Source: Phycisphaerae bacterium
GTDB taxonomy: Bacteria; Planctomycetota; Phycisphaerae; SM23-33
DNA: 64,000 nt
Direction of reading: 5' to 3'
NCBI GenBank assembly: GCA_046541415.1
Contig: JBKHDI010000001.1
Location: 32,657-96,656, forward strand
Shown: piece after piece, positions 27,777-38,182 of the stretch
Layout: each line of letters begins with the position of its first letter
Position numbering within the stretch: the first letter of the stretch is position 1
Position numbers and translations under genes: made by a program
Notes under the pieces: generated by a model
What the model was told of the DNA's origin: nothing
What the model saw: only the letters and a program-made list of their open reading frames with translations
The model's database searches: none

Positions 27777-28136
27777 ATGTCCGGAGAAAAAGAACAGTTC
27801 ATCAGCCAGCCCATCCGTCCGGTGGGCGAGAAACTCGGAACGGCCATGATGGCCATCGGCGAGCCGGCCCTGCCGGAGGCCTTCGTCTTCCGAGGCCGGG
27901 AGTACCGCATCGAGACCATCCAGGCCAGCTGGAAGACCTCCGCCCGGGAAGGGCACAGCCGCACGGGGGAACTGTACCTGCGGCGACACTGGTACCGCGT
28001 GGCGTGCGAAGACGGCTCGATCGCGACGATCTACTGCGACCGCCAGGCCCGCAACCGCAACAAGCCAGGCCAGCGATGGTTCGTCTACTCGGCCTGCTGG
28101 GCCTCGACAGCCCCGGGAACCGAATCGATCGACTGA
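27777..28136 (+). CDS. hypothetical protein (119 aa)
   Basis: ORF from ATG 27777. Convergently overlaps 3' end of next gene by ~50 nt, so extent uncertain. Confidence 0.35.
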   Translation: MSGEKEQFISQPIRPVGEKLGTAMMAIGEPALPEAFVFRGREYRIETIQASWKTSAREGHSRTGELYLRRHWYRVACEDGSIATIYCDRQARNRNKPGQRWFVYSACWASTAPGTESID

Positions 28137-28729
28137 CGCAGGTCGGGCCAGGTCAGGTCGTCGCCGGTCTGCATCTTCCCGTCAGGCCCGGCGCTGGTCA
28201 GCAGGGCGGCGAGGTAGGTTCGGCCATCCTGGCTGATCCGCACGATCTCGTAGCCGATGGCGCTGCCCCACGGATCCTGCAGATCGGTCGGGCTGAGCAC
28301 AGGTGACCAGTTGGCGGAACTGCCCGGCGCGGGAATCCGGGTCAGCACGGCCAGGCCTTCCGGGCCGCTGGGGTACCGCCCGACGATGCTGTGGTAGCGG
28401 ATCAGTTCTTTGTGGATCTTGGCCATCGTCGCCATCGCCAGCTTGGTCTTCAGCCCATTCTCGGCGGCAGAATCCCCGTCACCGGGGCGGAGCGGCAGAG
28501 ACAGCGGCGAATCCGTCTGCCGCTGCTCTTCGACCACATCGAAGCGATCGGCCAACTCGCGATGGGATTCGCTCTTTCTCTCGATCGGGCTGGGGGCCGC
28601 TTCATCAGGGTCCCGATCCGAGGATTCGCGCGGTTCGTAGGGAACCGGTTCAGCGGGCGGTTGGTCCTTGCAGCCGCTTTGCGACAGGAGGGCGACAGAT
28701 AGGGTGCAGACGGCCAGGAGTCTCATCAT
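28085..28729 (-). CDS. lipoprotein with type II secretion pseudopilin G (GspG) C-terminal-like domain
   Basis: Lipoprotein signal MMRLLAVCTLSVALLSQSGC. C-terminal GspG-like motif (YPSGPEGLAVL...DPWGSAIGYEI...DG..Y.L...G.DG). No prepilin GFT(L/I)xE leader. Start ATG overlaps DJ-1 stop (ATGA). Confidence 0.55.
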   Translation of the reverse strand: MMRLLAVCTLSVALLSQSGCKDQPPAEPVPYEPRESSDRDPDEAAPSPIERKSESHRELADRFDVVEEQRQTDSPLSLPLRPGDGDSAAENGLKTKLAMATMAKIHKELIRYHSIVGRYPSGPEGLAVLTRIPAPGSSANWSPVLSPTDLQDPWGSAIGYEIVRISQDGRTYLAALLTSAGPDGKMQTGDDLTWPDLRQSIDSVPGAVEAQQAE

Positions 28730-29244
28730 CGCAGCGCCTCGATGACCGCCTTGGTAAACGCAGGCAGGTCGTCCGGCTTGCGGGCGGTTATCACGTTGCC
28801 GTCGACCACACATTCCTCATCGACCCAGTCGGCCCCGGCGTTGAGCATGTCGTGCTTGATCGCCAGGAAGCTCGTCGCCCGCCTGCCCTGCAGGGCGTCG
28901 GTGCAGCAGAGCATCCACCCGCCGTGGCAGATCGCTGCCAGCAGGATCTGCCCCTCGGCCGCCTGCTGAATGAAGCGAATCATCGAACGGCTGCGACGCA
29001 TGAAGTCCGGACACCAGCCGCCCGGGACGATCACGCAGTGATAGTCCGCCCCGTTGACGTCCGCGGCCGAGTGCGTCGAGACGCACGGATAGCCGAGTTT
29101 CGAGGGGTACTGGGTCTCGGCCTCAGGGGCCACCAGATGCACCTCGGCCTGTTCTTCGATCAGGCGATAGTACGGGTGCCAGACCTCCATCTCCTGGTAC
29201 TGCTGGTCGAGCATGATCGCGATCCGTTTGTCCTGCAGGGTCAT
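28726..29244 (-). CDS. DJ-1/PfpI family protein (class I glutamine amidotransferase-like)
   Basis: 172 aa. Nucleophile-elbow Cys in AAICHGG, typical DJ-1/PfpI sequence. GGAG RBS. Confidence 0.8.
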   Translation of the reverse strand: MTLQDKRIAIMLDQQYQEMEVWHPYYRLIEEQAEVHLVAPEAETQYPSKLGYPCVSTHSAADVNGADYHCVIVPGGWCPDFMRRSRSMIRFIQQAAEGQILLAAICHGGWMLCCTDALQGRRATSFLAIKHDMLNAGADWVDEECVVDGNVITARKPDDLPAFTKAVIEALR

Positions 29245-29926: not shown

Positions 29927-30970
29927 TCAGCCTAGCCCATGCTTGCAGGATGGTTCCGGTCCCAGGTAATTGCCCGTCGCTGCGTAAGCGCGGGCCCGAC
30001 AACCACCGCAAATGCCCTTGTAGCTGCATCGGCCGCAGGCGCCCTGGAGCTTGTCGTAATCCCGAAGGTCGGCCAGGACGGCGCTGTCACGCCAGATGTC
30101 GGCCAGGGGCGTCTGCGTCACGTCGCCGCATTCAACGGGCAGGTAGCCGCAGGGGAACACCTGCCCGACATGGGAGACGAAAACTACCGAGACCCCGCCC
30201 AGGCACCCTCTTGAATGGCCCGTATCCAGGCCCCGCTGGGCGGCGATGCGGTAGTAGTGGGGGGCGCAGGTCGCCTTGATCTCCATCGACCTGCTCTGCT
30301 GGCGATCGACGATCCAGTTCAGCACGGCCTCGTAGCGATCGGGCGGCAGCTGGTGACTCGGGCCGATCTGCACGCCGCAGCCGACCGGGACCAGCAGGAA
30401 CAGGTGCAGCGCCTCGGCCCCGATTTGTCCGGCCAGGGCGTAGATCTCGTCGAGTTGCTGATCATTATGGGCGGCGATGGTGGCGTTGACCTGCAGGGGC
30501 ACGGCCGCAGCTCGCAGGTGCGCCGCACCGGCCATGGCTTGCGCAAAGGCGCCGTCCACACCGCGGAAAGCATCGTGCGCAGCGGCGTCGGCCCCGTCGA
30601 AGCTGATCGAGACGCGACGGAAGCCCGCATTCCGGATCTGTTCGGCGATCCTCGCATCGACCAGCGTGCCATTGGTCGCCAGGGCGGTCGGCAGCGACAG
30701 CGATCGGGCGTAATCGGCCAGTTCCTGCCAGTCGTTCCGCATCAGCGGCTCGCCGCCGGAGAAGACGATGATCGGCATGCCCAGGGTGGCGGCCGAGTCG
30801 AGCACCGACTTGACCTGCGCCGTTGTCAATTCGTCCGGCTGGGCTTGGCCAGGATCCAGCCGCCTGCAATGCACGCAGGCCAGATTGCACCGCGCCGTGG
30901 ACTCCCAGAACAGCAGACGCAGGGGCCTGGGCCCGTCAGTCTGGCCGATATGGCGCGAGGGGGGCGTCAC
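29927..30970 (-). CDS. radical SAM/SPASM protein, NirJ/AhbC/AhbD family (putative alternative heme biosynthesis enzyme)
   Basis: N-terminal LRLLFWESTARCNLACVHC motif characteristic of NirJ-type enzymes. C-terminal Cys-rich SPASM region (CGRCSYKGICGGCRARAYA). GTG start overlapping upstream stop (GTGA). Confidence 0.6.
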   Translation of the reverse strand: MTPPSRHIGQTDGPRPLRLLFWESTARCNLACVHCRRLDPGQAQPDELTTAQVKSVLDSAATLGMPIIVFSGGEPLMRNDWQELADYARSLSLPTALATNGTLVDARIAEQIRNAGFRRVSISFDGADAAAHDAFRGVDGAFAQAMAGAAHLRAAAVPLQVNATIAAHNDQQLDEIYALAGQIGAEALHLFLLVPVGCGVQIGPSHQLPPDRYEAVLNWIVDRQQSRSMEIKATCAPHYYRIAAQRGLDTGHSRGCLGGVSVVFVSHVGQVFPCGYLPVECGDVTQTPLADIWRDSAVLADLRDYDKLQGACGRCSYKGICGGCRARAYAATGNYLGPEPSCKHGLG

Positions 30971-32160
30971 AGTGGCAGGTCTCCCTCGATTTCCGCATCG
31001 GTCAGATAGCAGGCAGGGTCATCTCCCCACAGGTTGCCCGTTGCCGCCTCGGCCCGGGCCCGCAGATTGCCATTGCACATCGGCAGAAAGCGGCAGTCCA
31101 GGCAGCGACATTCCAGGTGTTTGTGTCGGTCGCGCAGCTTTGCCAGCAGCTCGTTGTCCGGGTCTGTCCAGATCTCGCTGAAGGGACGATGCAGCACGTT
31201 GCCCAGCACCTTGTTGCGCCAGAACTGGTCGGGGTGCACGTTGCCGTTCCAGCTGACACAGCCGATGCCGACGCCCGTCGAGTTCCCGCCGTTCATTTGC
31301 AGCAGTTGCAGCGCATTGGCGGCCCGGGCCGGGTCTTCCTCCAGCAGACGCAGGTACAGGTAGGGCCCGTCGGCGTGGTTGTCGACGGTAAGCACCTCGA
31401 CCTGCCTGCGATCGCGGTGCAGCCGGACTGTCCGGTCGATGATCCGGTCGATCGCCTCGCGGGTCTGGGCTGCGTCGAGTGAGTCGGTGCGGATCTGGTC
31501 GCCGCGGCCGGTGTAGGCCAGATGGTAGAAGCAGATCCGCGGGATGTTCTTCTCTTCCAGCAGGTCGAACATGCCGTCTATGTCTTCCACGTTACGGCGG
31601 TTCAGCGTCAGACGCAGGCCGACCTTTACCCCGGCGGATTGACAGTTGTCTATGCCTTCCATCGCCCGATCGAACGCGCCGGCAACGCCCCGGAACTCGT
31701 CGTTGACCTCCCGCAGTCCGTCCAGGCTGATGCCCACGTAACTCAGGCCCGCTCGGGCGAAGGCGTCGGCCTTGACGGGCGTAATCAGCGTGCCATTGGT
31801 CGAAACCACCGCCCGCATGCCGGCCTGGCGGGCATGGCCGATCATCTCCAGCAGGTCCGGACGCATGAGCGGCTCTCCACCGGAGATCAGCAGTACGGGA
31901 CAGCCGAAGCAGGCCAGGTCGTCGATCATAGCCCGGGCCTGCTCGCCAGTCAGTTCATCCGGGGCCGGGTCGCAATTGCTGGCTGAGTAACAATGCGCGC
32001 AGCGTAGATTGCACGCCTTGGTGGAGTTCCAGACCACCACGGGCCTCTTGTCGGCCGAGAACTGCAGCAAATGGCTGGGCAGTTTCCCGCTGTCCCTGCC
32101 GTACCGCAACGGGTCTGATGCCTCGACAGTGCGACAGTAAAGTTTGGAGATTCCGATCAT
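30967..32160 (-). CDS. radical SAM/SPASM protein, NirJ/AhbC/AhbD family (second paralog)
   Basis: MIGISKLYCRTVEASDPLRYGRD leader then RPVVVWNSTKACNLRCAHCYSAS motif. C-terminal SPASM cysteines (CRCLDCRFLPMCNGNLRARA). Start at first ATG (32160), no clear SD. Confidence 0.6.
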   Translation of the reverse strand: MIGISKLYCRTVEASDPLRYGRDSGKLPSHLLQFSADKRPVVVWNSTKACNLRCAHCYSASNCDPAPDELTGEQARAMIDDLACFGCPVLLISGGEPLMRPDLLEMIGHARQAGMRAVVSTNGTLITPVKADAFARAGLSYVGISLDGLREVNDEFRGVAGAFDRAMEGIDNCQSAGVKVGLRLTLNRRNVEDIDGMFDLLEEKNIPRICFYHLAYTGRGDQIRTDSLDAAQTREAIDRIIDRTVRLHRDRRQVEVLTVDNHADGPYLYLRLLEEDPARAANALQLLQMNGGNSTGVGIGCVSWNGNVHPDQFWRNKVLGNVLHRPFSEIWTDPDNELLAKLRDRHKHLECRCLDCRFLPMCNGNLRARAEAATGNLWGDDPACYLTDAEIEGDLPL

Positions 32161-32263
32161 GGCAGGTCCGGCTGGGGGGGTGTTACGTCTATACGGCGGG
32201 GTGCATTCTAGCAGAACCCCGAGTCCTGCCCCAACGCCTGTCTTGCAATTCCGGCCGTCCTGC

Positions 32264-33370
32264 TCAGTTGCCGAACTGGAAGGCCTCGTCCAGCAGCTTA
32301 AAGCCCAGTTGGGTCTGGGTGACCACGAGCCTGCCGTTGACGATCTTGACCGACCCCTTGCCCAGGGGATACCACATGTCATCGCCGATGGCGTTCTTGA
32401 TTATCGCGATGATGCTGTCGCGGTTGCGCGTCTTGAGCCGTTCGAGCTCATCCAGCCCGCCGCGGTCGTCATCATCGTCGTCGTCATCGTCGTCATCGTC
32501 ATCGTCGAAATCGAAGCCGTCATCGTCGTCATCATCGTCGTCGTTGTTCGGCAGGGCCGGCAGGGGGTCCGGGCCCTTGAAGTTGCGGATGGGCATCAGC
32601 GCGTGCTTGATGTCGTAGATGCGGGTCTGGGTTTTCTGGTTCAGGGCCTGCCCGGTGGCGATGGTGACAACGCCGCCGTCGACGACCCAGTAGACGCTGG
32701 AGAACGTGTCGCGGTTGGCGTTGAGCTGGGCCATGACCACGTCGAGCACCCGGGCGGCGGATACGTTGTTGAGCTTCAGCTGGATGGGTGTGTCCGGGCT
32801 GATGCCCTCCAGTTCCAGCGAGGCCCAGTTGACGTGGAAGTTCTGCTCTGTTGTTGTCCGCATGAACTGGACCACGTCGCGCAGGGCGATGTTGTCGAAG
32901 TCATACTGGACCTGGCTGCGCCGGGCCGGCTGTTTGCCCCTGGCGGCCTCGACGGCAGTGCCAACGGCGGGAAGGGTGCGCACGCGGCGATCGCGCCCGG
33001 CCTGGGATCGAAGCAGGAGGTACCGCTGCTGGCTGGTTACCAGGATCTTGCCGTCGTGGACCAGCCATGTCAGGGGCTTTCCCTGCGGGGAGACGCGCAC
33101 CAGCAGCGTATCCAGCAGGGCTGCGGGTTTGACCTCGCGCCGGGCTATGCGGACAGGGGTATCCAGCGACACGCCATAGCTCTCCAGCGTGCGGGCGTCG
33201 ATGTGGACCTTCATGTCGACCTTGCTGCCGACCCACGCCAGGGCCTGGCCCAGCGTGGCCGGGATGCCCGCGGTGGAGACCGGCTGCTTCATCGGATCGG
33301 CCTTCTCGGCCGCCGCCGGGGCGAGCGAGAGGAGTGTCAGCAAGGCTGCGATCGAGAGTTGCTGTTTCAT
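32264..33370 (-). CDS. secreted protein with two STN/secretin-N-like repeat domains and a 26-residue poly-aspartate tract
   Basis: Signal peptide MKQQLSIAALLTLLSLAPAAA. Two similar ~80-aa units (HIDARTLESYGVSLDTPVRIARREVKPAALLDTL / YDFDNIALRDVVQFMRTTTEQNFHVNWASLELEG). DDDDDDDDGFDFDDDDDDDDDDDDDD tract. GGGAGA RBS. Confidence 0.55.
   Translation of the reverse strand: MKQQLSIAALLTLLSLAPAAAEKADPMKQPVSTAGIPATLGQALAWVGSKVDMKVHIDARTLESYGVSLDTPVRIARREVKPAALLDTLLVRVSPQGKPLTWLVHDGKILVTSQQRYLLLRSQAGRDRRVRTLPAVGTAVEAARGKQPARRSQVQYDFDNIALRDVVQFMRTTTEQNFHVNWASLELEGISPDTPIQLKLNNVSAARVLDVVMAQLNANRDTFSSVYWVVDGGVVTIATGQALNQKTQTRIYDIKHALMPIRNFKGPDPLPALPNNDDDDDDDDGFDFDDDDDDDDDDDDDDRGGLDELERLKTRNRDSIIAIIKNAIGDDMWYPLGKGSVKIVNGRLVVTQTQLGFKLLDEAFQFGN
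32465..32542. repeat. in-frame (GTC/ATC)n trinucleotide simple-sequence repeat encoding poly-Asp
   Basis: 26 near-consecutive GTC/ATC codons on plus strand (GAC/GAT on coding strand), interrupted only by GAA-ATC-GAA-GCC. Confidence 0.85.
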
Positions 33371-33513
33371 GGTATCTCCCGCGGTTGGCTGGCCGCCGGA
33401 TCGAACGGGCAGATCCGACATCAGCGAAGGCTGTCTCTGCTGTTCTAATTGTAGCCTGTCCGGGCGCAGAAAGGTTGCGCCGTCTTGATCCAGACAGCCT
33501 CGCTGCCCGGCGG

Positions 33514-34386
33514 TTAGTACATGCTTCGCAGATAACCCCGTGCGGTGGCAAACCAGCCCGTGCCCCAATGTCGCAGGCCGTGCAGCAGCAGCGAGGCTAG
33601 ACCAACCGCAGTCAGATCGGCGGCGTTGGCCTCGATAAAGCTGATCACGCTGGACGGGTGATTGCGCACGTGGAGCAGCTCGCAGTGTTCCATGTTGTCA
33701 TCGGCCTTGCGGGCGCCTTCACGCAGTTCGGCCACGCCGGCATCGACGCAGACGTCGAAGATCATCTCCGGCTGGACGATGTGCTTGTCGCGAACCAGGC
33801 CCAGGCAGATCATCTCGGTAATCTTCTCGCCGGGCATGGCGCACTCTTCCAGCAGTTCCTCGGCCATGGTCCGGAAGGGGCAGGGCAGTTGGTCAGGCTC
33901 CTCGGGAGGCTGGACGACGCCCCCGATCGGGTGGATCCGTCCGGCGTGGTAGTACACGTGCTCGCTGCGCCGCCCGAGCAGCAGGAAGCCGTCGTTGGTC
34001 TGCAGGGCCGCCGAGACGCCCAGGGCGTCGCCGAGGATGTCCGGGCCATACTCGTACCGCAGATGGGCGTGTGTCAGGTTGGTGCCCAGGAACGTCTTGA
34101 AGTCGATCGGGCCCAGATCTAGCGTCAGGTCGTCGCCGGTGGTCGAGCAGTCTTCCAATCGACACAGTTGGCCGTTGAACAGGCGACGGTCGGTCCCCTG
34201 GGCCTTTTCCATCTGCTCGGCCCAGGTCTTGTCGATCAACTCCGTCACAGCCTCGCTGACCGGACGGCTGAGAGTCGACCACTTGACCCGGACGCGCTCG
34301 GGGGGGTACTTCCCGACCATGTCCAGGAAGAAACGCCCGCAGTCGCGGACGCCTCCGTTGGTTTTGTGCACTTCGTATGCCTGCAA
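33514..34386 (-). CDS. hypothetical protein (290 aa; degenerate NUDIX-like box GGVVQPPEE..RTMAEELLEE)
   Basis: Coherent ORF between hemB and secreted protein. TTG start with GAGG RBS. Fold assignment tentative. Confidence 0.4.
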   Translation of the reverse strand: MQAYEVHKTNGGVRDCGRFFLDMVGKYPPERVRVKWSTLSRPVSEAVTELIDKTWAEQMEKAQGTDRRLFNGQLCRLEDCSTTGDDLTLDLGPIDFKTFLGTNLTHAHLRYEYGPDILGDALGVSAALQTNDGFLLLGRRSEHVYYHAGRIHPIGGVVQPPEEPDQLPCPFRTMAEELLEECAMPGEKITEMICLGLVRDKHIVQPEMIFDVCVDAGVAELREGARKADDNMEHCELLHVRNHPSSVISFIEANAADLTAVGLASLLLHGLRHWGTGWFATARGYLRSMY

Positions 34387-34415: not shown

Positions 34416-35411
34416 TTATCCCCGGGACATCGCCCGGGCAAGATCTTCGGCAAAGTAGGTGATGATCCAGTCTGCCCCGGCCCGCTTGATGGCCGTTACG
34501 GTCTCGGCCGCTGCGTCGGGCAGCTTCAGCCAGCCACGCTGGGCGGCGGCATGGAGCATGGCGTACTCGCCGCTGACCTGGTAGGCCGCCAGGGGCAGAT
34601 CGAACCGCTGCCGGAGCGACTGGAGGATATCCAGGTAGGCCCCGGCGGGTTTGACCATCAGCATGTCCGCACCTTCGTCCACGTCACCTGCGGCTTCGAG
34701 CATCGCCTGCCGGCCGCTACGGTAGTCCATCTGATAGCTGCGCCGGTCGCCGGCTTGCGGGGCGCTGTCCGCGGCGTCCCGGAAAGGGCCGTACAGCGAC
34801 GAAGCGAACTTCACCGCATAAGACAGAATCGCCGTCTGTTCGTGTCCGTCCCGGTCCAGGGCCTGGCGGATCGCTCCGACCTGGCCGTCCATCATCGCCG
34901 AGGGGGCGACCACGTCCGCCCCGCAGGCTGCGTGGGAAACCGCGATCCGCCCGAGTGATTCTATCGCCCGGTCGTTCTCGACCGTCACAGTCCCGTCCGC
35001 CTGCTCGACCAGCGGGCCACAATGGCCATGGTCGGTGTATTCGCACAGGCAGACGTCGGTGATTACCAGCAGCCCGGGCCATCGCTGTTTGATCTGTCCG
35101 ACCAGTCGGCCGACCGGCTGGGTGTCATCCCAGGCGCTGCTGCCTTCGGCGTCCTTGCTTTCGGGCAGGCCGAACAGCAAGACTGTCCGAATGCCCAGAT
35201 CCACCCACGTGCCGACCTTCGTTATCGCCTGATCGACCGACAGTTGGAACTGCCCGGGCATGGAGGCGATCTCGCGGGCCTGGGCTTTGCCGGGACAGAC
35301 GAACAACGGCGCAACAAGCTGTCGGGCCGAGAGAAAGACCTCGGCCAGCGAGTCTCGCATTGTCGACGTCCGTCGGAGTCGACGCAAACGCCTGGCTGGA
35401 TATCGGCTCAT
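34416..35411 (-). CDS. hemB: porphobilinogen synthase (delta-aminolevulinic acid dehydratase)
   Basis: N-terminal RRLRRLRR motif and active-site region match HemB (VSGEYAMLHAAAQ, catalytic lysines). 331 aa. Confidence 0.92.
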   Translation of the reverse strand: MSRYPARRLRRLRRTSTMRDSLAEVFLSARQLVAPLFVCPGKAQAREIASMPGQFQLSVDQAITKVGTWVDLGIRTVLLFGLPESKDAEGSSAWDDTQPVGRLVGQIKQRWPGLLVITDVCLCEYTDHGHCGPLVEQADGTVTVENDRAIESLGRIAVSHAACGADVVAPSAMMDGQVGAIRQALDRDGHEQTAILSYAVKFASSLYGPFRDAADSAPQAGDRRSYQMDYRSGRQAMLEAAGDVDEGADMLMVKPAGAYLDILQSLRQRFDLPLAAYQVSGEYAMLHAAAQRGWLKLPDAAAETVTAIKRAGADWIITYFAEDLARAMSRG

Positions 35412-35525: not shown

Positions 35526-36953
35526 TCATTGGCCCTGCCGGCCAACCGCTGCGGCGGGCAGGGGGGCCTGCAGGGTCATCGGACCCTCGGCGCCGCGATG
35601 GACGACAAACGGTGTCCCGCTTTCCTGGCCGCTGTCCTGGCGGACACGCAGCGAGTAATCGCCGTAGAACCCGCGGAACCGGACCACGCCGTCGCCGTCG
35701 GTCCGCAGCTGCTGTCGGGTGGTCCAGTCTTCGTGGATCAACTTCTTGACGCGGTGGTAGACAGCCTTGGGCTCGTGGCTGGAGGCCTGGCCCCAGTCGA
35801 TGCCCCAGCCCATCAGTCCCCAGAAGAAGAAGGCGTCGACGGCCGGGTGGCCGAACGCAGTGGTCAGGTAGTTTTCCACGTAGTCGGCCTGGAGATTGTC
35901 GATCTCCGCCTGGCTGAGCTTGCCGGTTTCCTCCAGCGCCTTGGTTCGGGCCCAGAACTCGGTAATGTGCAGCCCCAGACCGCAGGCGGACAACTCGTCA
36001 TAGACAGCCGCCTGATCGGCGTGGCTGGCCCAGCCGCCGGTGTGCGACTGCAGGCCCATCGCGTCGGGGCAGGCGCCGGCCTCGGTCAGGGCGGCAAAGA
36101 GCTCCAGGTTCCGCTTGCGCTGCAGCGAGGGGACCACCTTCGTCCCGTCGGCGGCGACAGAACCGCGGTCCTCGTCCTTGCCCTGCAGTCCGTAGTCGTT
36201 GACGATGTACGTCGCGTCGGGGTCTTCCTCGCGAGCCCATCGGAGCACTTCGGCAATGTATTCGGCAATCAGCTCGGTCTTCTCCAGGTGCGGCCAGTTG
36301 CGCTGGGCGAGGTTCTTAAAGGCCGGCTCCCAGAGGGCTTCGTTGACCACGTCCCAGATCTTCACCCTTCCCCGCCCGGCGGCGATCAGCGTTCGGACGC
36401 GGACTTCGGCGAACTTCATCTGCGTCTCGTAGTCGTAGCGTTTGACCCAGTCGGGCACGCACTTGTCGATCGACCAGAACAGCGGGTGACCCTTGACGGT
36501 CAGCCCCTCGCTCATGCCCCAGTCCACGCACCAGCGGAACCCGTCGTACTGCGGCTGGCCCTGAATGTCTTCGGTCTTGGCCCCGTCGTTACGGCCTCGC
36601 TCGGTCCAGTAGCACAGGGCAGTGCAGGCGTTGAGGCAGTCGGCGAAGAGTCGCTTGAAATAGCGGGCCTTGTCGGTCTGGCCCTCGCCGAAGCGGTACA
36701 TCCGGTCCAGGCCCCAGAGCTGGTCGCCGAAGCAGAAGGCGTGCTTCTTGAGCACGACCTCTACAGGCACATTGGCCAGGGCCTGGCCTTGGCGATCCAC
36801 CAGGCGCAGCTCGACGTCGCCCTTGCGGACCCGGTCGATCCTTCCCTTTGCTTCGCGGACCGCGGAGAGGGATTCCTCCGACATGCAGTCCTGCATGCCC
36901 GCTTCCATCCGCAGCCACTCTTCTCCGCCTTGTCCGATATTGTCATTCATCGT
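35526..36953 (-). CDS. glycoside hydrolase family 10 (endo-beta-1,4-xylanase-like) with N-terminal beta-sandwich/CBM-like region
   Basis: GH10 acid/base motif WDVVNEALW and nucleophile region HITEFW. Start at internal ATG 36953 (track ORF to 37031). Confidence 0.65.
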   Translation of the reverse strand, partial: TMNDNIGQGGEEWLRMEAGMQDCMSEESLSAVREAKGRIDRVRKGDVELRLVDRQGQALANVPVEVVLKKHAFCFGDQLWGLDRMYRFGEGQTDKARYFKRLFADCLNACTALCYWTERGRNDGAKTEDIQGQPQYDGFRWCVDWGMSEGLTVKGHPLFWSIDKCVPDWVKRYDYETQMKFAEVRVRTLIAAGRGRVKIWDVVNEALWEPAFKNLAQRNWPHLEKTELIAEYIAEVLRWAREEDPDATYIVNDYGLQGKDEDRGSVAADGTKVVPSLQRKRNLELFAALTEAGACPDAMGLQSHTGGWASHADQAAVYDELSACGLGLHITEFWARTKALEETGKLSQAEIDNLQADYVENYLTTAFGHPAVDAFFFWGLMGWGIDWGQASSHEPKAVYHRVKKLIHEDWTTRQQLRTDGDGVVRFRGFYGDYSLRVRQDSGQESGTPFVVHRGAEGPMTLQAPLPAAAVGRQGQ

Positions 36954-36979
36954 GTCTCTCTTTCCCAGGGCCCCTGAGA

Positions 36980-38182
36980 TTACGTCGTATAGTCGGCGTT
37001 GATTGTAATGTACTCTCGCGAAAGATCGCATGTCAGGGCGGTGAAGCGGCCCTTGCCCAGTCCCAGATCAGCCTGGACGTGTACTTCGCTGCCGCCCAGG
37101 TGGGCCTCCACCTTGCCCAGATCGAACTTCCGCCCGGTCCCGCCGGAGAAGATCGTCACCCCGCCGATCTTGATCTTCAGCTTCTCGGCGGTGACCTTCG
37201 CGGCGCTCTTGCCCAAGGCCATCGCAATTCGTCCCCAGTTGGGGTCCTGGCCGTGAATGGCCGTCTTGAACAGCGGGGAATCCGCGACCGACTTGGCTGC
37301 CATTTCCGCCTCGCCGTCACTGCGGGCACCGGTAACCTCCACCCGGACCAGCTTGGTCGCCCCCTCGCCGTCGAAGACAATCGCCCGGGACAACTCGCCG
37401 CAGACCTCGTCGAGCAGGGCGCCGAAGCGGGCGAAATCCTTGCTGCCGGCCTTGACGGTCTTGTTGCCCGCCTGCCCCGAAGCGAAGACCGCCACCATGT
37501 CGGACGTGGAGGTATCCGAATCCACCGTCACCGAGTTGAACGTCGTATTGACCACCTGTTTCAGCGCCCGGCTCAGCAGCGACGGCGAGATCTTCAGATC
37601 CGTGTTGATCACGCCGATCATGGTCGCCAGGGACGGGGCGATCATGCCCGAACCCTTGGCGATGCCCGCCATCGTCACCGTCTTTCCCGCAATCCGGCCC
37701 TGGACGACAGCGGACTTCTCTCGCGTATCGGTGGTCATGATCGCCCGCAGGGCGGATGTGTCGTCGCGACGAGACAGTCGCCCGGCCGCATCATCGATGC
37801 CCGTCTTGACCTTGTCCATCGGCAGACGTCGGCCGATCACGCCGGTCGAGGCGACCAGGACCTTCTCCGGCTCGGTTCCCAGGTGCTTGGCGGTGCGGGC
37901 GGCCATGGCCTGGGCGTCGCGCAGGCCCGCCTTGCCCGTGCAGACGTTGCTGCAGCCGGCGTTGATGACCATCGCTCGCGCCTTGCCGTAGCCCCTGGCA
38001 AAGGTGTTTCGACAGTACAGAATCGGGGCGCCGACGATCTGGTTCTGCGTGGTCAGAAAGGCCATCGACGCATCGGACTGGCAGGCAAAGATGGCCAGGT
38101 CTTCCTTGCCGCTGGGCTTGATGCCGCACTTGACCCCGGCGGCGACAAAGCCGGCCGGAACGGTTATGTGTCGCGTCTGCAT
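36980..38182 (-). CDS. argJ: bifunctional glutamate N-acetyltransferase/amino-acid acetyltransferase
   Basis: ArgJ autoproteolytic ATML site (GSGMIAPSLATMIGVINTD) and overall ArgJ pattern. 400 aa. Confidence 0.9.
   Translation of the reverse strand: MQTRHITVPAGFVAAGVKCGIKPSGKEDLAIFACQSDASMAFLTTQNQIVGAPILYCRNTFARGYGKARAMVINAGCSNVCTGKAGLRDAQAMAARTAKHLGTEPEKVLVASTGVIGRRLPMDKVKTGIDDAAGRLSRRDDTSALRAIMTTDTREKSAVVQGRIAGKTVTMAGIAKGSGMIAPSLATMIGVINTDLKISPSLLSRALKQVVNTTFNSVTVDSDTSTSDMVAVFASGQAGNKTVKAGSKDFARFGALLDEVCGELSRAIVFDGEGATKLVRVEVTGARSDGEAEMAAKSVADSPLFKTAIHGQDPNWGRIAMALGKSAAKVTAEKLKIKIGGVTIFSGGTGRKFDLGKVEAHLGGSEVHVQADLGLGKGRFTALTCDLSREYITINADYTT

Follow-up and report, generated by a model that had tools for sequence, protein, structure and literature searches.

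A Poly-Aspartate Tract in the Hypervariable Loop of a Probably Periplasmic, N0-Type Protein of Phycisphaerae

The Gene, Its Product, and a Tract of Aspartates

The window, as that term is used here, is a stretch of 64,000 nucleotides (nt) of a Phycisphaerae bacterium (contig JBKHDI010000001.1 of assembly GCA_046541415.1), taken at its full length. On its minus strand is a complete gene for a protein of 368 amino acids (aa), one which bears toward its C-terminus a tract of aspartates interrupted by GFDF, i.e., D8-GFDF-D14. This tract resides within a disordered loop, and the loop in turn resides within the third of the protein's three domains, the first two of which display the STN, or secretin-N0, fold (Table 1). 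An earlier note, based on the letters of the window only, viewed the tract as a candidate calcium- or metal-binding or mineral-interacting element that is encoded by a hypermutable microsatellite, and that interpretation is partly supported by what follows.

The 368-aa reading frame is without internal stops, and the sequence GGGAGA sits 7 nt 5' of its ATG. The N-terminus, MKQQLSIAALLTLLSLAPAAA/EK, looks on inspection like a Sec signal peptide, in agreement with the earlier note. No lipobox is present, nor is there any Cys anywhere in the 368 aa. The family to which the protein belongs is represented here by 149 full-length, aligned members, and a crude test for an n-region plus h-region is satisfied by 124 of these, with lipobox-like N-termini seen in only 3. 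The gene is also spanned, in its entirety, by an antisense 'shadow' open reading frame (434 aa, 32144-33448, plus strand), which would read the tract as poly-serine (S14, S8). That frame is an artefact of high G+C content, with the minus-strand frame instead being the one that is backed by family conservation.

The tract itself reads DDDDDDDD-GFDF-DDDDDDDDDDDDDD, that is, 23 aspartates within 26 residues rather than the 22 that had been counted previously, the Asp within GFDF having been overlooked. With 7.3% taken as the local frequency of Asp, the probability of at least 23 aspartates in 26 residues is approximately 1.6e-23, which excludes chance as the origin of this Asp-rich stretch, and the chance of such a stretch occurring anywhere in the six-frame translation is approximately 2e-18. 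As DNA, the tract consists of 14 GAC, 9 GAT, 1 GGC, and 2 TTC codons, with GAC and GAT interleaved such that the longest run of any identical codon is three. According to Tandem Repeats Finder, a period-3 array extends over 32465-32544, though with matches of only 70%, and perfect repetition within the tract goes no further than 11 bp at period 3, 17 bp at period 6, and 23 bp at period 9. The long perfect tandem repeat that serves as a criterion for a contingency locus is, that is, lacking, and the excess of GAT in the tract over neighboring genes is not significant (p 0.07). The earlier description of a near-pure GTC/ATC run placed the tract correctly, but its purity depends on counting GAC and GAT together. 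The tract is non-random and real, yet it is no pure microsatellite.

Table 1. Features of the gene, its product, and adjacent genes (window coordinates)
Feature	Position	Strand	Basis or remark
Complete gene, 368-aa exported protein	32264..33370	-	Translation; stop codon 32264-32266, ATG at 33370
Sec-type signal peptide, residues 1-21	33308..33370	-	Read from sequence
Domain 1, residues ~27-127, STN / secretin-N0 fold	32990..33292	-	
Linker 1, residues ~128-152, disordered, Arg-rich	32915..32989	-	pLDDT <50 over 125-152
Domain 2, residues ~153-246, STN / secretin-N0 fold	32633..32914	-	
Domain 3, first part, residues ~247-267: strand beta1 (TRIYDI) and short helix, ending at invariant P267	32570..32632	-	
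Hypervariable disordered loop, residues ~268-305, between beta1 and alpha1 of domain 3	32456..32569	-	pLDDT <50
Poly-Asp tract D8-GFDF-D14, residues 277-302	32465..32542	-	Mixed GAC/GAT codons
GFDF, residues 285-288	32507..32518	-	Local form of family motif [GS][LI][FW][GDE]
Domain 3, second part, residues ~306-368: alpha1, beta2, beta3, alpha2	32267..32455	-	
290-aa protein	33514-34386	-	
hemB	34416-35411	-	
AhbC-like radical-SAM/SPASM gene	30967-32160	-	TIGR04546, 637 bits vs cutoff 650
AhbD-like radical-SAM/SPASM gene	29927-30970	-	TIGR04545, 403 bits vs cutoff 500

Domain Architecture

An AlphaFold2 model, built on 19 sequences, has domains 1 and 2 as well-folded alpha/beta units, with a predicted local distance difference test score (pLDDT) of about 90, and with the Arg-rich linker between them disordered. 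The third element consists of a strand (residues 250-253), a disordered stretch (261-305), and then a helix-strand-strand-helix. In a test of three-dimensional fold the window protein displays that of N0/STN domains, which confirms at the level of fold the two STN-like domains that the earlier note had claimed. The disorder for which that note had proposed consulting AlphaFold is present as well, in the loop with its tract. In a model of the C-terminal portion alone, a strand at positions 4-10 and a helix at 12-15 correspond to residues 247-258, with L258, like P267, invariant within the family. Domain 2 holds the family-invariant residues R171, N177, N181-W182, and Y227-W228. Invariant in the second part of domain 3 are I328-G329, M332-W333, P335, and G337-K338-G339-S340 (IGxxMWxPxGKGS) along with Q352, L355-G356, and K358-L359 (QxxLGxKL), with F357 nearly so.

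Profile searches are less telling. Over the whole protein, Pfam and NCBIfam return low-complexity noise on the Asp run plus one marginal match (E 0.003), in which residues 153-246 align with the N-terminal portion of PilQ, and PilQ chains of the PDB are matched at E 0.04. No match of the window protein to Pfam STN or GspD_N0 is seen even at E<=10. Certain relatives which consist of repeats (P0065 and P0130, described below) do pass the Pfam STN cutoff (PF07660), which the window protein fails, and the STN homology therefore is indirect. For the third domain, ten sequences from which the linker had been excised matched nothing in Pfam at E<=10; a profile of 44 such domains yielded only spurious helical matches to ERAP1 among PDB sequences; hhalign produced no alignment of that profile with the two canonical Secretin_N domains of P0161; and Foldseek found no match of the C-terminal model to the PDB at E<0.4. 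Domain 3 is assigned tentatively to the secretin-N1, or ring-building-motif, fold. The secretin C-terminal domain (PF00263) is absent in Pfam and NCBIfam scans, with the protein stopping right after domain 3, at residue 368. Known Ca2+-binding domain profiles likewise are without a match, the tract giving only noise far below cutoff (Cwf15, TFIIA, Sigma70_ner, and RNase E acidic regions).

The stretch between domains 1 and 2 (residues 118-156) has a net charge of +7 in the window protein and is net positive in 137 of the 149 members (median +5), a sign opposite to that of the loop. An intramolecular latch between basic linker and acidic loop was considered as a family feature and was rejected, as loop charge shows no correlation with the charge of linker 1 or with that of the remainder of the protein.

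The Family and Its Loop

A word-indexed search returned 18 homologues (345-394 aa, E 1e-39 to 1e-138), the sole one with a source name being a protein of a Phycisphaerae metagenome-assembled genome (MAG). When 1.84 billion cluster representatives were searched with a profile, 11,592 matched at E<=1e-3 and, under the stricter limit of E<1e-30, 520, and about 130 of the best 150 are full-length with the same architecture. Loci from species-representative genomes, 32 in number, all belong to Planctomycetota/Phycisphaerae MAGs, the relatives found in that scan being at most 39% identical (51% over one 67-residue fragment). Judging from these searches, the family is large and is confined to Planctomycetota/Phycisphaerae. 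It has no entry in Pfam or NCBIfam, nothing relevant was found in the literature on Planctomycetes STN domains and periplasmic poly-aspartate, and a family hidden Markov model found no paralogues within the window.

Several much larger proteins are tandem copies of an STN domain plus a split small domain, and in P0126 such units are fused to a BlaR1/M56 sensor peptidase. The junction that corresponds to the loop spans no more than about 10-20 residues in these tandem-repeat proteins, and the long loop of the family thus is an insertion. The C-termini of three of the giant, tandem-unit planctomycetal proteins, P0065, P0130, and P0161, share a motif of approximately 40 aa, VGFADVPQELD.PRVG.LV.FEKTL..PADRL.I.A.YTW.G.

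The loop, defined here as the segment from invariant Pro267 to helix alpha1, is of low complexity in 149 of 149 members, with lengths of 19-72 aa (median 38). Most loops are rich in G, S, T, and N, with a pooled composition of 21% G, 15% S, 15% D, 8% T, and 8% N. Net acidity is seen in 114 members, and the remaining 35 loops are neutral or basic. At least ten aspartates are found in only 26 loops, and Asp runs of at least eight in only 9, the longest, of 14, being that of the window protein. With poly-Asp defined as at least ten aspartates including a run of at least five, 16 members qualify and 133 do not. Those that qualify are scattered over a neighbor-joining tree made from structured columns, requiring at least 11 changes of state.

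Within this otherwise variable loop there nonetheless is a recurrent aromatic element. An F or W is found in 117 of the 149 loops, in 96 of them exactly one, preceded immediately by L or I in 80 and, two residues before, by G or S in 81. The mean net charge of the ten residues following that F or W is -3.2 and of the ten preceding it is -1.0. The GFDF of the window protein is this family motif, [GS][LI][FW], and the tract consequently is better viewed as two acidic flanks with an aromatic anchor between them. The loops of P0015, P0023, and P0008 resemble nucleoporin-style GLFG repeats, e.g., GGGGGLFGGGGGGSSRGGRRSGGGGGSFDGRGGSGGGLFG.

Tract Evolution and Length Variation

The closest relatives, at 62% identity, possess acidic tracts that are of comparable length but that differ in detail, namely D9-GDLF-D5-E-D3-Q-D2-E-D3 and D4-N-D6-LF-D8-A-D5. 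Their GAC to GAT ratios, 14:9 and 15:8, are alike, with the two codons interleaved as in the window tract. From these sequences the tract looks to be old and maintained at the level of protein, rather than a recent product of slippage.

Among ten clusters of sequences that are at least 90% identical, internal insertions or deletions (indels) are confined to the two low-complexity linkers. Loop indels of 2, 9, and 26 aa occur in three of the ten clusters, the 26-aa one being G-rich, and one cluster displays a 5-aa indel in linker 1. The indels affect G-rich or ED repeats and never poly-Asp, and in the sole poly-Asp pair that is at least 90% identical, P0001 and P0164, the tracts are of equal length. 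No copy of the exact window protein is on record, and two degenerate DNA patterns, employed in seeking conspecific copies, matched nothing in metagenome contigs. The loop is, on these comparisons, a hotspot of in-frame indels over evolutionary time, with no sign of a fast contingency mechanism. The hypermutability by slippage that the earlier note had proposed, along with the comparison of tract lengths which it had suggested, receives a divided answer: Other lineages do vary in loop length in frame, but the clean repeat is lacking, codon runs do not exceed three, and the one informative poly-Asp pair is unchanged.

Comparison with Known Systems

In the N-terminal regions of secretins (GspD/PulD, PilQ, EscC/InvG), an N0 domain is followed by N1-type ring-building domains and a pore. 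The window protein differs in possessing two tandem N0 domains and no C-terminal pore domain, in having its N1-like domain interrupted by a loop some 40 aa in length, in lacking matches to Pfam STN, GspD_N0, or Secretin_N, and in being encoded by a gene that does not adjoin those of type II secretion, type IV pilus, or type III secretion systems. In comparison with the STN domains of TonB-dependent transducers, and with the C-terminal STN-like domain of FecR/PupR-type proteins, it is instead soluble and stand-alone, without a barrel, without a transmembrane anti-sigma segment, and without a nearby gene for an extracytoplasmic function (ECF) sigma factor. BfpG (type IVb pilus), DotD (Dot/Icm), and Xanthomonas VirB7, of which DotD and VirB7 are lipoproteins, are single-domain and are encoded within the operons of their own systems, whereas the window protein has three domains, no lipobox, and a housekeeping neighborhood.

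As to the loop, the periplasmic part of Neisseria PilQ carries length-polymorphic 'small basic repeats', which are basic octapeptides situated between the domains of a true secretin. There too a low-complexity, length-variable segment is found in a protein with secretin-type domains, but the segment considered here is an acidic, homopolymer-like loop located inside of a domain of a non-secretin. Poly-Asp or poly-Glu stretches such as the calsequestrin tail and those of Asp-rich shell-matrix proteins bind Ca2+, and these are eukaryotic. The window tract is similar to them in being a long, disordered run of Asp and dissimilar in being bacterial and in that its Asp run is not conserved within the family.

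Explanations and Their Weighing

The favored explanation, to which a probability of roughly 55% is attached, is that this is an exported, N0-type interaction or scaffold protein, with the loop of domain 3 serving as a disordered, mostly acidic tether that presents an aromatic motif, and with acidity carried to an extreme in the window lineage. The protein would be Sec-exported and probably periplasmic and soluble, comprised of two STN/N0 domains, a basic disordered linker, and a probably N1-like domain 3. N0/STN domains elsewhere bind partners by strand addition or form periplasmic rings, as with GspD-GspC, FecA-FecR, BfpG-BfpB, and DotD, and by analogy the window protein may be an interaction or scaffold subunit of the cell envelope. 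The plan of the loop is fixed family-wide, with a polar stretch rich in G, S, T, and N, then the aromatic anchor, then an acidic stretch, and then helix alpha1, with the acidic stretch in the window lineage having presumably been enlarged on both sides of the anchor to give rise to D8-GFDF-D14. The loop, flexible and negatively charged, might serve as a tether or 'bristle' by which the aromatic motif is shown, in which case selection would be upon length, disorder, and charge rather than upon sequence. Poly-Asp would have grown out of an acidic seed through small duplications in frame, and would later have been maintained at the level of protein, with the scrambling of codons a consequence of that long maintenance. 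The tract may bind divalent cations incidentally. It is inferred, in addition, to be no phase-variation switch, and poly-Asp to be dispensable for the common function of the family.

It is possible, though unlikely, that the tract instead is a dedicated, low-affinity but high-capacity Ca2+/metal-binding or mineral-interacting element, one which buffers or senses periplasmic divalent cations or which makes the folding or assembly of domain 3 cation-dependent. Having 23 carboxylates in 26 residues, the tract resembles poly-Asp/Glu stretches that generally are known as Ca2+ binders; an acidic tract of comparable length has been maintained in the 62%-identity clade despite scrambled codons; and at least 11 lineages have arrived independently at poly-Asp in this position, with most loops net acidic. 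Cation binding is plausible as chemistry, and it may occur alongside what the tether explanation proposes. No known Ca2+-binding motif is detected with Pfam, however, nor is there a neighboring gene for a cation transporter or related to minerals, and the rest of the protein is conserved across the 133 of 149 relatives that lack poly-Asp and the 35 whose loops are neutral or basic. As most members are without the Asp run, cation binding cannot be the family's shared mechanism. Quite unlikely is that the tract arose as an essentially neutral side effect of replication slippage, that is, a mere spacer with length and composition drifting freely. The extreme variability of loop composition (G-, S/T-, N-, or D-rich), the 2-26 aa indels that distinguish sequences at least 90% identical, and the ability of tandem-repeat relatives to do with a 10-20 aa junction all are as such drift would have it. 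Recent slippage nevertheless predicts uniform codons, whereas three taxa show GAC interleaved with GAT; the loop has been lost in none of the 149 members, never falling below 19 aa; and the aromatic motif and the acidic bias downstream of it are conserved inside of the loop.

Period-3 repetitiveness of the DNA, together with loop indels that keep the frame and that are seen, in other lineages, in 3 of the 10 near-identical clusters, invites the further idea of (GAC/GAT)n as a contingency locus, at which slipped-strand mispairing would vary a surface-exposed protein from cell to cell. This is improbable given codon runs of at most three and perfect repeats of at most 23 bp, given that in-frame changes in length are unable to switch expression, and given that the tracts of P0001 and P0164 are of equal length, with indels elsewhere falling in G-rich or ED repeats. 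More speculatively, the N0/N1 domains might oligomerize as a periplasmic ring, sending 12-15 loops into one lumen as a sequence-tunable selectivity filter, either charged or cohesive, or as a cation-dependent gate. That proposal, which draws on the acidic loops and on GLFG-like loops (GGGGLFGGGG...GGGLFG in P0015 and P0023), is very improbable, with the single aromatic motif of most loops arguing against a cohesive meshwork; were it true, it would represent a bacterial analogue, in the planctomycetal envelope, of a disordered-loop permeability barrier. Barely credible, lastly, is a tract generated in error by the assembly or sequencing of low-complexity DNA. Though such repeats can be mis-assembled in MAGs, nothing specific suggests that here. 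The tract is in frame, only 78 bp, flanked by invariant residues, and interrupted exactly at the conserved aromatic motif, and the artefact that the earlier note had named as a means of refuting its claim is argued against by comparable tracts in independent assemblies (L001, an NCBI MAG; L040, from Logan; and P0164, from JGI).

Should the tether explanation be true, then poly-Asp represents an extreme of the common, loosely constrained drift of low-complexity loops, and involves no new mechanism. The domain folds already are known, as are homopolymer and low-complexity loops. New, as judged against Pfam, NCBIfam, and the literature that was searched, are the stand-alone N0-N0-split-domain architecture, the obligatory hypervariable loop with its aromatic motif, and the recurrent poly-Asp state. 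The poly-Asp loop is a lineage-specific curiosity rather than a new system, and the more useful result is the family, i.e., a widespread, unannotated envelope protein made from N0 modules without pore, transducer, or anti-sigma part. The module of STN plus split domain, as repeated in giant proteins and as found in the BlaR1/M56 fusion, suggests a lineage-specific periplasmic interaction module which merits definition as a family. The origination of poly-Asp at least 11 times at one site provides, in addition, a natural data set on selection versus mutation bias in bacterial homopolymer tracts.

Genomic Neighborhood

Upstream of the gene in the window are a gene for a 290-aa protein and hemB, and downstream are AhbC-like and AhbD-like radical-SAM genes (Table 1), the 'heme/rSAM block' of the earlier note being an accurate name for this setting. 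The closest relative retains the order. Falling just under their equivalog cutoffs, the AhbC-/AhbD-like pair suggests a siroheme-dependent route to heme b. Over 36 loci, hemB is the upstream neighbor on the same strand in 14, including in relatives only 30-37% identical, and the 290-aa protein, which has no Pfam or NCBIfam match, lies between hemB and the family gene in 10. The conserved trio, as a side observation, covers L001, L008, L010, L020, L021, L023, L026, L031, and L035. In other lineages the upstream gene is pyrD or fmt, with either mcsA/mcsB or an ABC-2/Band_7 block on the downstream side, and no recurrent secretion, pilus, TonB, or sigma/anti-sigma neighbors are seen across the 36 loci. 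The pattern is one of a vertically inherited core gene amid housekeeping genes, with no dedicated operon. Scans for promoters and terminators and with Rfam around the gene gave no signal that defines a transcription unit.

A functional link to heme synthesis was considered and rejected, as adjacency to ahbC/ahbD is seen only in the window and in a single relative, with pyrD, fmt, or mcsAB taking their place in other lineages. McsA/McsB-like genes (a UVR motif protein plus an ATP:guanido phosphotransferase) lie just downstream in approximately nine loci of distant relatives (L004, L005, L014, L023, L025, L032, L033, L036, and L038), though they are not so placed in the window. A GspG-type pseudopilin-like gene (28085-28813, minus strand; PF08334, E 2e-9) is found 3.5 kb downstream and is not kept there in the closest relative. 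A GH10 glycoside hydrolase gene (35526-37031, minus strand) lies between hemB and argJ, and has the same placement in the closest relative.
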